DNA of 64,000 nucleotides, taken from Candidatus Dojkabacteria bacterium (GTDB lineage: Bacteria; Patescibacteriota; Dojkabacteria; SC72). The notes under the pieces are model-generated. The model made no database searches, was not told the DNA's origin, and saw nothing but the letters and a program-made list of their open reading frames with translations. The DNA is taken from the NCBI GenBank assembly GCA_050950165.1, contig JBMNHC010000001.1, positions 453,744 to 517,743 on the forward strand. Direction: 5' to 3'. Shown here one piece after another: positions 58,981 to 62,714 of the stretch. A program made the position numbers and the translations under genes. Positions within the stretch are counted from its first letter, which is position 1, and each line of letters starts with the position of its first letter.

Positions 58981-60189
58981 ATGGTAAAAAGAGCAAAAAG
59001 ATATAAAGGGACTAAAAGTAAGTTTGTTTTTAATTTCAATTTTAACTGGAAAAGGTTCTCTGTTATTCTTCTGTTTGTTTTAATATCTGCATTTACTATT
59101 TATAGATATTTTGAGTTTGTTAACATTCAACTTAAAGATCCCGTTAAGGAGTATGAAACAGTACAATATCTTTTGAGAAGATATCCAGACTCTTTTAAAA
59201 GGACTCTTGTAGTGTTTGAAGATGAAGAGGAGGGAGAGGAAAAGGTAAAGCATGTGTATCTTTATGCGCATAACTCTGTAAAGAATATGTCTGTTTTAAT
59301 ATATATTCCTAATTGGGTTCTCTATACAGGAATGGAGGGTGACTTTGGTAGTGCTGTAGCGATTGCAGGTTTTAGATATGCAGGAGAGTTTAAACAACAG
59401 GGTAGGGGTGTAGAGTATGCTATTTGGCAGTTAGAGGAGCTTTTGGGTATGAAGATAGATGAGTATATCTGGTTTGATTCTAGTTCTTTCTTAGCTTTTA
59501 AAGAGGGTTTAGGAGATATCTCTCCTAATACTTCTTTTGCACAATATTACAAAAATGGAGGTGAGATATCAGATAGTGTGTTTTTCTTTAATAGCTTTGT
59601 GTCTAAATTAAATTGGTTTAACCTGTTATTTTCAGATAGTAGGTTTAGTAATTTTAATCCTACAATATATTCTTCCTACTTTACCTTTCCTCAAGTTATT
59701 GCAGAACTAAGAAAGATTAATACTAGTATTTTAAATATAAAGCCTTATGTAATTGATTTAGGTCTTTCACAATATCTTCTTCAAAAGGAGTACGAGGAAG
59801 AAGGTGGTATTAAAAACTATCTTCTACCTCAGGCATTTGATACTGTTTGGAGAGAGAAAACAGAGAGAATGTATGAGAAAGAGATGGAGAGAGAGAGAGT
59901 TAGAATCGAGGTTTACAATGGAAGTAATATCTCGGGTAAAGCGTATTCATTTGGTAGAAAGATTTCTAATTCAGGAGCAGAGGTAGTTAGGTTTGATAAT
60001 GCACCGTCTGTAGAGGATAGTACAAAATTCTATGTTCCTAATATGCAAGATTTTGATTACTCATTTAAAGTAGTAGAGGATCTGTTTCCTGGTAAGTATG
60101 AACTTATTGAAGGTAGACCTTCTTTTATGACAACAGGAGATATTGTCATTATCTTAGGTAAAGATATATCTACGATGTTTTCATTCTAG
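58981..60189 (+). CDS. LytR-CpsA-Psr (LCP) family protein with LytR_C domain
   Basis: N-terminal TM. Central LCP-like region (VLIYIPNW...GFRYAGEF). C-terminal RIEVYNGSNISGKAYSFGRKISNSGAEVVRFDNAP matches the LytR C-terminal domain pattern. Confidence 0.5.
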   Translation: MVKRAKRYKGTKSKFVFNFNFNWKRFSVILLFVLISAFTIYRYFEFVNIQLKDPVKEYETVQYLLRRYPDSFKRTLVVFEDEEEGEEKVKHVYLYAHNSVKNMSVLIYIPNWVLYTGMEGDFGSAVAIAGFRYAGEFKQQGRGVEYAIWQLEELLGMKIDEYIWFDSSSFLAFKEGLGDISPNTSFAQYYKNGGEISDSVFFFNSFVSKLNWFNLLFSDSRFSNFNPTIYSSYFTFPQVIAELRKINTSILNIKPYVIDLGLSQYLLQKEYEEEGGIKNYLLPQAFDTVWREKTERMYEKEMERERVRIEVYNGSNISGKAYSFGRKISNSGAEVVRFDNAPSVEDSTKFYVPNMQDFDYSFKVVEDLFPGKYELIEGRPSFMTTGDIVIILGKDISTMFSF

Positions 60190-60224: not shown

Positions 60225-62714
60225 TTGATTACTATGTTAACTGTTTTAGGAATTTTACTTTTACTTTCTCTAATCTTTGTTCTTTTTGTACTTTTTGTTG
60301 TAAACAGGAAGAAAGAAGAGGAGATAGATATGTTAGAAGAGATACGAAATCCTCTAGTTATGCAGATACTTGTTCCTAGAGAGAATGATAAGACACCTCT
60401 TGCAGCAGAGCAGATGTTTGCCTCTATTCATGGTATTTTAGGTGATTCTATTAAATCTTTTGATCTGATTAGTTTTGAGATCTCATCTAGTGGAGATGAG
60501 GGTATTAAATTCTATGTTGTAATTCCTCAGCATCTTGCTAAGTTTGTAGAGGGTCAGATATATGCTCAGTATCCTAACGCAGATATTACATATACCACGG
60601 ATTACTGTGAGAGGAAGAATTCAGAGATGAAACTTTTTGTAACTACTGGGGAGGTAGAGCTAGAGAAGGATTTTATCTTTCCAATTAAAACGTTTAGAAA
60701 CTTTGAAGTTGATCCTTTGGCAGCAATTACAGGAGCGGTTTCAGACTTAAAGCTAGGAGAGCATGCTTGGATTCAGATTATTGTTAGACCTGTTTCTAAC
60801 TATTGGCAGGGTAGTTCTAAAAAATATATTATGGCAATTAGAGAGGGTAAGAATCCTTACGGAGAGAGTTTCTGGGACAAAATATCTTTACTTTTACAGA
60901 GTATAGGGAAGAGTCTTTCTGAAAGTAGTAGTAGTGAGCCACAAAGAAAAGAGGTTGTAAAATTAGAGCCTGGGCAGGAGGAAGAGCTTTCGGAGATTGA
61001 AAACAAGATGTTAAAGTTAGGTTTTGAGTTTTGTATTAGGGTTGTTACAAAGGCACCTACACAGATAGAGTCGGAGCAGATATTGAGAGATATTGTAGCT
61101 AGTTTTAAACAGTTTACTACAGCACATTTGAATAGTTTTGTACACTCTGTTCCTACTAAGGATGGAGTGGAGATGTATGCTGACTTTATCAAAAGATATC
61201 TCTCTAGGGAGACGGTAGATATATTGAATATTGAGGAGTTAGCTTCTCTTTACCATATGCCTAATATTTCAGTAGAGACTCCCAATATTGCATGGAGTAG
61301 GTCTAAGAAGTTAGAGCCTCCTATGAATCTTCCTAAGGCAGTTGATGATGGTGTTACTGTTTTTGCGGAAACAGATTACAGAGGAGCAAAGGAAGAGTTT
61401 GGTATTAAGAGAGAGGATAGGAGGAAGCATTTTTACATTTTAGGAAAAACAGGTGTAGGTAAGTCTACTGTATTTAAGAACATGTTTATCTCTGACATAC
61501 TCAGAGGTGAGGGAGCATGTATTGTAGATCCTCACGGTGAGCTAGTAGAAGAGTTGTTAGACTTTATTCCTCCTGAGAGAGTAGAGGATGTAATATATTT
61601 TAATCCTACAGATACACAATATCCAATAGGTTTTAACCTTTTAGAGTTAGAGGATAAGTCTCAGAGAGATTTAATAGCGGATGGTGTTGTAGAGGTGTTT
61701 AAGAAGCAGTTTGGAGATTCCTGGGGTCCTAGATTGCAATATATTTTGACTAATACTGTAGCTACTGCACTGGAGGCACAAAATACTACACTTCTTTCTG
61801 TGCCTCGTCTGCTTACAGATAAAAACTACCGTAAATTTATCCTAAAGCATGTAGATGATCCGATATTAATAAAGTTCTGGGAGGATGAGTTTGCTCAGAT
61901 GAGTCAGAATCAGAAACTTTTAGCAGAGGCTATCTCTCCGATACAAAACAAGGTGGGTCGTTTTATCTCTTCTGCTGTAACAAGGAATATAATAGGGCAG
62001 GTTAAGTCTACGATAGATTTGAGAGAGATAATGGATAGTAAAAAGATTTTGCTTGTTAATCTTGCACAGGGTAGGCTTGGTGAGGAGACAGCGTCTCTTC
62101 TTGGGGGTATGATAATTACTAGGTTACAATCTACAGCTCTTGAGAGAGTGGATATGCCTGCGGATGAGAGAAATGACTTTTTCTTGTTTGTAGATGAGTT
62201 TCAGAATTTTGCAACAGATTCTTTTGCTAAGATTCTTTCAGAGGCAAGAAAGTTTAGGTTAGATCTTTGTATGACTAATCAATATATTGATCAGCTTCCT
62301 TTAACTGTTAGACAAGCGATATTTGGTAATGTTGGTACTTTGGGTTCTTTTGTAGTTAGTCAGTCGGATGCAGCTGTACTTGAGAAGGAGTTTGCTCCTA
62401 ATGTGTCTTCTGCTGATTTAGTTTCTTTAGATGCTCACTCCATGTACATTAAGTTATGTATTGATGGTATGACATCAAATACTTTTAGTGCTAGGTCTTT
62501 GCCTCCTAGGTTTGAGCCTTTTGGCCTTAGAGAGAGGGTAGTTGCTCACTCTAGAGAGATGTATGGTGTTCCTAAGGAGGTAATTGAAGAGAAGATTGTT
62601 AGGTGGAGTAATCAGGCATATAGTGAGAAGGGTAATAGGTCGGTTGCAAAGAAAGAGAAGGTGTCTGTTAAAAAGCAGGATGATGGTCAGTATGAGATAG
62701 AGATTAAGGAGTAA
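60225..62714 (+). CDS. membrane-anchored P-loop NTPase of the TraG/VirD4/HerA (DUF87-like) superfamily
   Basis: N-terminal TM (MITMLTVLGILLLLSLIFVLFVLFVV). Walker A HFYILGKTGVGKST followed by IVDPHGE. Walker B FFLFVDEFQNF. 829 aa. Confidence 0.55.
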   Translation: MITMLTVLGILLLLSLIFVLFVLFVVNRKKEEEIDMLEEIRNPLVMQILVPRENDKTPLAAEQMFASIHGILGDSIKSFDLISFEISSSGDEGIKFYVVIPQHLAKFVEGQIYAQYPNADITYTTDYCERKNSEMKLFVTTGEVELEKDFIFPIKTFRNFEVDPLAAITGAVSDLKLGEHAWIQIIVRPVSNYWQGSSKKYIMAIREGKNPYGESFWDKISLLLQSIGKSLSESSSSEPQRKEVVKLEPGQEEELSEIENKMLKLGFEFCIRVVTKAPTQIESEQILRDIVASFKQFTTAHLNSFVHSVPTKDGVEMYADFIKRYLSRETVDILNIEELASLYHMPNISVETPNIAWSRSKKLEPPMNLPKAVDDGVTVFAETDYRGAKEEFGIKREDRRKHFYILGKTGVGKSTVFKNMFISDILRGEGACIVDPHGELVEELLDFIPPERVEDVIYFNPTDTQYPIGFNLLELEDKSQRDLIADGVVEVFKKQFGDSWGPRLQYILTNTVATALEAQNTTLLSVPRLLTDKNYRKFILKHVDDPILIKFWEDEFAQMSQNQKLLAEAISPIQNKVGRFISSAVTRNIIGQVKSTIDLREIMDSKKILLVNLAQGRLGEETASLLGGMIITRLQSTALERVDMPADERNDFFLFVDEFQNFATDSFAKILSEARKFRLDLCMTNQYIDQLPLTVRQAIFGNVGTLGSFVVSQSDAAVLEKEFAPNVSSADLVSLDAHSMYIKLCIDGMTSNTFSARSLPPRFEPFGLRERVVAHSREMYGVPKEVIEEKIVRWSNQAYSEKGNRSVAKKEKVSVKKQDDGQYEIEIKE

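Follow-up and report, generated by a model that had tools for sequence, protein, structure and literature searches.

In the window (the whole 64,000-nucleotide stretch of Dojkabacteria DNA analyzed here), we identified a gene for a membrane-anchored ATPase belonging to the VirD4/TrwB branch, that of the type IV coupling proteins (T4CPs), in the FtsK/HerA superfamily. The protein represents a T4CP sub-type composed of three parts, namely a single N-terminal transmembrane (TM) helix, a VirB4-type cytoplasmic docking domain, and a RecA-like ATPase with an all-alpha insertion. Homologues of the same architecture fill the coupling-protein slot of conjugation modules on the plasmids of monoderms (Bacillus and an actinomycete), whereas in Patescibacteria the gene, strongly conserved, belongs to the chromosomal core and has no accompanying relaxase. 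The most likely role of the protein, in which we place about even confidence, is that of a coupling ATPase that serves the Patescibacteria T4SS but is not genetically linked to it.

Architecture and family assignment

The ORF can be read from a TTG codon, but in P0001, a public protein of identical sequence, translation begins at an ATG codon three codons past it, which we consider the likelier start. Residues are numbered from the TTG codon below unless otherwise noted. The ORF is unlikely to have arisen by chance, as the family counts over 5,000 homologues and the orthologues within Dojkabacteria are 62-87% identical to one another. The features are as follows.

58981..60189, + strand: upstream gene, divergent LCP protein with LytR_C, membrane-anchored; 36 nt from the TTG start of the ATPase
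60225..62714, + strand: whole ORF of the T4CP-like ATPase, 829 aa from TTG; likelier start at ATG 60234 (826 aa)
60234..60305, + strand: single N-terminal TM helix, residues 4-27 (hydropathy scan; AF2 helix 2-23)
60306..61409, + strand: cytoplasmic N-domain, residues 28-395; PF26449 (public annotation), predicted fold of the VirB4/TrwK N-terminal domain
61410..62504, + strand: T4CP-type RecA-like nucleotide-binding domain, residues 396-760
61443..61469, + strand: Walker A (P-loop) GKTGVGKST, residues 407-415, almost unchanged throughout the aligned family
61656..61994, + strand: predicted all-alpha insertion, approximately residues 478-590, in the interval between Walker A and Walker B (AF2 helices 475-587 in the 826-aa numbering)
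62181..62210, + strand: Walker B FLFVDEFQNF, residues 653-662
62238..62288, + strand: SEARKFRL...MTNQ segment (phmmer against 1gl6/TrwB; conserved in the family consensus)
62505..62711, + strand: variable C-terminal tail (AF2 pLDDT; ORF lengths across loci; domain-wise identity)

The TM helix is directly followed by a basic/acidic stretch (NRKKEEE), and no second hydrophobic segment was found by the hydropathy scan over the whole 829-aa protein. Thus, the remainder of the protein is regarded as cytoplasmic, and both the scan and the full-length AF2 model (pLDDT 89, pTM 0.75) suggest an N-out, C-in topology. Classical T4CPs bear two TM helices. The C-terminal tail is ordered up to around residue 795 in the AF2 model and then turns into a lysine-rich region of low confidence (pLDDT below 50 at residues 806-826). 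The length of the tail differs widely by lineage, the ORFs across the loci encoding proteins of 800-1,229 aa.

In the local Pfam search, the ATPase was matched over the cut-offs by both TrwB_AAD_bind (PF10412; residues 397-691, E = 4.5e-11) and DUF87 (PF01935; E = 2e-7), while neither FtsK_SpoIIIE nor the gamma domain was detected. DotL and TrwB were the top PDB sequence matches, and the orthologues of Saccharimonadia additionally bear T4SS-DNA_transf and TraG-D_C. On the other hand, the NCBIfam equivalog and subfamily models of T4CPs (TraD and CD1115 VirD4-like) scored 33-34 bits against cut-offs of 250-366 and aligned with the P-loop region only. Both Walker motifs are intact. R675 and Q686 align with R375 and Q386 of TrwB in the phmmer comparison with 1gl6, and we take the latter two to be the Arg finger and the sensor Gln, the positions of which are then kept in the ATPase. 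The helical bundle predicted by AF2 between the Walker motifs is likely the counterpart of the all-alpha domain of coupling proteins. Altogether, the ATPase resembles TrwB (R388), VirD4, DotL, and Cag-beta in possessing a RecA-like domain with an all-alpha insertion, Walker A and B, the Arg-finger and sensor-Gln positions, a membrane anchor, and PF10412. It differs from classical T4CPs in the single TM helix, the 370-aa VirB4-like domain inserted between the anchor and the ATPase, the low identity (approximately 15%), the absence of relaxase and T4SS genes nearby, and its being a chromosomal core gene.

The N-domain (approximately 370 aa) found no match in the local Pfam, NCBIfam, and PDB sequence searches. 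PF26449 is not included in the local Pfam copy, and the assignment to this family was taken from the public precomputed annotation, in which PF26449 is followed by PF10412/PF01935 in P0001 and more than 300 homologues. The window gene is an ordinary and already annotated member of its family. A literature search for PF26449 or DUF8128, the latter presumably being the name of the N-domain family, retrieved no papers. The conserved motifs in the N-domain are PRxNDKxxLAAEQMFA, FVEGQIYAQYP, PIKTFxxFEVDPLAxIT, and NIEELASxYHxPxxxVETPNI. When the full-length AF2 model was subjected to Foldseek, full-length VirB4 (TrwK) was ranked first with approximately 900 aligned columns. The N-domain is predicted to adopt the alpha/beta fold of the VirB4 N-terminal domain. 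The link between the N-domain and VirB4 appears to be one of fold and not of sequence. We also sought homology at the sequence level by aligning the family alignment with plasmid VirB4 in hhalign; the alignment covered the P-loop only with a probability of 5.7%. Likewise, the Pfam models of VirB4 were either below the threshold (AAA_10, 21.1 bits against the cut-off of 27.5) or absent at E<=0.01 (CagE_TrbE_VirB, which we take to be PF03135).

The preliminary description of this DNA, made from the sequence alone, had proposed an 829-aa protein with an N-terminal TM helix, Walker A, IVDPHGE (here at residues 433-439), and Walker B motifs, and a T4CP/HerA/FtsK-type ATPase pattern. All of these were recovered, and the pattern was narrowed down to the VirD4/TrwB branch. 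The "unassigned" domain of about 400 aa does exist, but it can be assigned to PF26449 and to a predicted VirB4-type fold.

Genomic context and distribution in Patescibacteria

Among the 38 window ORFs scanned with Pfam, every ORF with matches was of housekeeping nature and nine had no match. No VirB4, VirB3/6/8, pilin, or relaxase was recognized in this Pfam survey, and neither a second paralogue, the c7 partner (see below), nor an FtsK-like gene was found in the window by hmmsearch or regular expressions. In Dojkabacteria, the ATPase gene is located between an LCP gene and yebC, with yebC-ruvC-ruvA-ruvB downstream. A scan for promoters and terminators near the ATPase gene yielded sites no commoner than in shuffled sequence.

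LytR_C was the sole Pfam match of the upstream protein as a single sequence, and the LCP catalytic-domain family was absent from its matches at E<=0.01. The profile of its family (A4), however, matched solved LCP enzymes, namely Lin1025 (3owq; 2.3e-9), TagV (2.4e-8), TagU, and TagT. Judging from these profile matches, the upstream gene encodes a divergent LCP (LytR-CpsA-Psr) protein. The LCP/LytR_C gene was conserved at the -1 position in the loci of Dojkabacteria, Woykebacteria, WWE3, and CPR3, and the LCP neighbors across these four lineages share only 14-19% identity.

Neither T4SS nor relaxase genes were recognized within approximately five called ORFs on each side of the related genes in 80 Patescibacteria loci. 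The conserved neighbors across the loci comprised the LCP enzyme, a protein with Sigma70_r4 and HARE-HTH, a protein of approximately 180 aa, and housekeeping genes. The neighbors vary by class and are mostly of housekeeping nature, including secDF, the dcw cluster (Saccharimonadia), topA/dprA, and yebC-ruvCAB. A module of the order paralogue, c7, Sigma70_r4/HARE-HTH protein, and ATPase gene was found in other lineages, and the c7 family had no match in Pfam, PDB, or PHROG. We considered a single family for the -1 neighbors of all lineages and rejected it: families c6 and c35 are LCP/LytR_C while c4 is Sigma70_r4 plus HARE-HTH. The median identity among the Dojkabacteria loci was 74% for the ATPase, 73% for DnaB, 61% for yebC, and 38% for the LCP neighbor, and these values point to strong purifying selection on the ATPase, apparently at the level of DnaB.

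In the survey by Quinonero-Coronel et al. (2025; PMC12102498), VirD4-like T4CP homologues amounted to 5,713 in 2,918 of the 3,035 Patescibacteria genomes, whereas VirB4 was present in 2,417 genomes, approximately 500 fewer, and only 148 of the 5,713 homologues were near virB4 (PMC12102498). The authors judged the homologues to be possibly "exapted" and reported a distinct VirB4 clade in Patescibacteria. In Southlakia ML1, the t4cp homologue was not essential for epibiotic growth but the T4SS genes were, possible masking by the second paralogue aside (PMC12102498). Table S3 of the survey lists pairs of t4cp2-profile matches two genes apart, which agree with the arrangement of the paralogues in our loci, and thus the surveyed homologues, mostly far from virB4, are probably of the same family as the window ATPase. 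In the passages of the survey consulted, no description is given of the N-domain or its VirB4-like fold, nor of the conserved neighbors and the relatives in phages and plasmids. Altogether, the ATPase family is near-universal in Patescibacteria, often as two paralogues.

These results bear on the setting given in the preliminary description. The host, supposed there to be a putative episymbiont, is indeed a CPR bacterium; the absence of relaxase, VirB4, and pilin genes nearby agrees with our Pfam survey of the window, and the LCP-like nature of the upstream neighbor is borne out by the family profile. The word "stand-alone" fits the window; it probably does not fit the whole genome, as two Dojkabacteria rows in the supplement of the survey read "Yes" in the final column, which we take as VirB4 present (PMC12102498). 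The idea of an isolated oddity does not hold, since the near-universal family had already been reported as T4CP homologues away from virB4 (PMC12102498). DNA uptake, DNA export, and effector translocation, as put forward in the preliminary description, may be regarded as candidate roles.

Relatives on plasmids and in phages

The homologue on the Bacillus subtilis plasmid NRS6107_2 shares 25% identity over residues 82-778 (E = 6e-48). Its gene is directly upstream of a relaxase gene, which is followed by the genes for a TcpE-family protein and a VirB4-type ATPase (AAA_10, 4e-83). The gene order on an Embleya plasmid is PrgI, ATPase, homologue, relaxase, and NlpC/P60. The ATPases in these slots, annotated as "DUF87 domain-containing", align with the window protein over the whole architecture including the NIEEL...P..SV motif. 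In contrast to the Dojkabacteria gene between the LCP gene and yebC, the plasmid copies adjoin relaxase and VirB3-like/VirB4-like genes. Furthermore, both Patescibacteria and the plasmids hold a separate, genuine VirB4 besides this ATPase family.

Full-length similarity was also detected to phrog_5156 (E = 3.6e-91 over residues 76-804). SPO1 gp27.4 and phage G gp156, both of lytic Bacillus phages, are full-architecture homologues with 22-25% identity in tblastn. In these myoviruses, the genes reside among uncharacterized ones, and the Pfam signal of the proteins is reduced to the P-loop. No T4SS gene was recognized among the annotated SPO1 neighbors of gp27.4. The occurrence of full-architecture homologues in lytic phages, together with this lack of a recognized T4SS gene in the annotated SPO1 neighborhood, implies that the family can probably work outside a conjugation machine.

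Possible functions of the ATPase

We propose that the ATPase would form a TrwB-like membrane ring, in which ATP is spent on passing the substrate into a channel of the membrane. For docking on this channel, its VirB4-like N-domain may serve as a platform that binds membrane subunits of the VirB3/VirB6/VirB8 types, and the most probable channel would be the MPF-FATA-derived Patescibacteria T4SS encoded elsewhere in the genome. As relaxases are almost absent from Patescibacteria genomes, proteins or relaxase-free DNA would be likelier substrates than a relaxase-DNA complex.

Some observations count against a coupling role. No T4SS or relaxase gene was recognized in the window, the homologues are rarely near virB4, and the NCBIfam T4CP scores are far below the cut-offs. 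The same applies to the spread wider than that of VirB4 and the non-essential t4cp of Southlakia ML1, both as given in the survey, as well as to the non-T4SS neighbors and the phage homologues.

A serious, though less likely, rival is that the coupling protein was exapted into a T4SS-independent, self-contained membrane motor for a core task. This task may be the transport of protein or DNA at the cell envelope, or else some step connected with the attachment of wall polymers by the putatively co-transcribed LCP. The survey data on spread, distance from virB4, and essentiality, and the judgment of its authors (PMC12102498), agree with this idea, and so do the conservation equal to that of DnaB, the -1 LCP/LytR_C gene kept across four lineages despite the low identity of the LCPs, the conserved c7 module, and the homologues in lytic phages. 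However, no alternative channel or substrate emerged, the class-specific neighbors may reflect inherited gene order only, and MAG incompleteness could partly account for the ATPase being present in more genomes than VirB4. Retention and high conservation of both the all-alpha domain and the VirB4-type docking domain would be expected of a protein that still plugs into an inner-membrane complex of the T4SS type. A broader version of exaptation, which we consider unlikely, takes the T4CPs with the VirB4-type N-domain (in Patescibacteria, plasmids of monoderms and archaea, and SPO1-like phages) as ancestral, the Patescibacteria members having become a T4SS-independent core envelope translocase with lineage-specific partners. 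For Dojkabacteria and the lineages related to them, the partner may be the LCP enzyme; elsewhere, it may be c7 and the Sigma70_r4/HARE-HTH protein.

The first rank of full-length TrwK/VirB4 in Foldseek would suit a second, divergent assembly ATPase of the VirB4 class, resembling a VirB3-VirB4 fusion in its TM helix, VirB4 N-domain, and ATPase. Such an enzyme would power the assembly of a T4SS or pilus and would not recruit substrates, and the N-domain of VirB4 is known to anchor this ATPase both at the membrane and on VirB3/VirB8 (PMC12857230). We regard this as improbable, given that the sequence profiles favor T4CP families, the sequence signal to VirB4 does not extend beyond the P-loop in hhalign, the Pfam models of VirB4 fail, the plasmid members adjoin a relaxase and coexist with a genuine VirB4, and Patescibacteria already possess a distinct VirB4 clade according to the survey (PMC12102498). 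Very improbable is a septal pump for chromosome segregation or dimer resolution like FtsK/SpoIIIE. FtsK/SpoIIIE, TcpA, and HerA belong to the same superfamily of ATPases, DUF87 is over the threshold in the window protein, and a membrane-anchored ring ATPase encoded by a highly conserved core gene, next to yebC-ruvC-ruvA-ruvB in Dojkabacteria and the dcw cluster in Saccharimonadia, would be in line with such a role. Nevertheless, the structural scores were lower for FtsK (17.0), TcpA (17.7), and HerA (23.3), FtsK_SpoIIIE (PF01580) and the gamma domain were absent from the Pfam matches, and the protein has a single TM helix where four or five would be expected. The N-domain is predicted to be VirB4-like and not a HAS-barrel, and no NurA or other nuclease was found among the annotated conserved neighbor families. 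In addition, an ftsK gene is annotated separately in the Saccharibacterium TM7x (PMC10768705), and the Southlakia homologue was reported as non-essential in the survey (PMC12102498). An ATPase component of an anti-phage defense system, similar to HerA or mad8, is barely credible: PADLOC did return mad8 and HerA, but these matches span the generic ATPase core only, and no effector partner, be it a nuclease, Sir2, or another type, was found nearby. Unlike defense islands, the gene is universal, syntenic, and conserved at the level of DnaB, and the window is of housekeeping nature throughout.

The fold of the VirB4 docking domain predicted for the N-domain offers a concrete and testable idea of how the ATPase attaches to a membrane complex, and the plasmid relatives link this CPR protein to experimentally tractable Gram-positive systems. 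The hybrid architecture of a VirB4-type fold and a T4CP bears on the divergence of the VirB4 and VirD4 ATPases, and the ancestral-form reading, if true, would tie VirD4 directly to a duplication of VirB4. Patescibacteria need the T4SS for epibiotic growth, and the T4SS cluster of Southlakia is without a recognizable coupling protein (PMC10633639). With almost no relaxases in these genomes, what the T4SS carries and how the substrate is chosen is the question. The T4CP-like ATPase, near-universal and conserved at the level of DnaB, readily suggests itself as the substrate receptor that is missing and, if it does not play this part, marks a new core function of these reduced cells.

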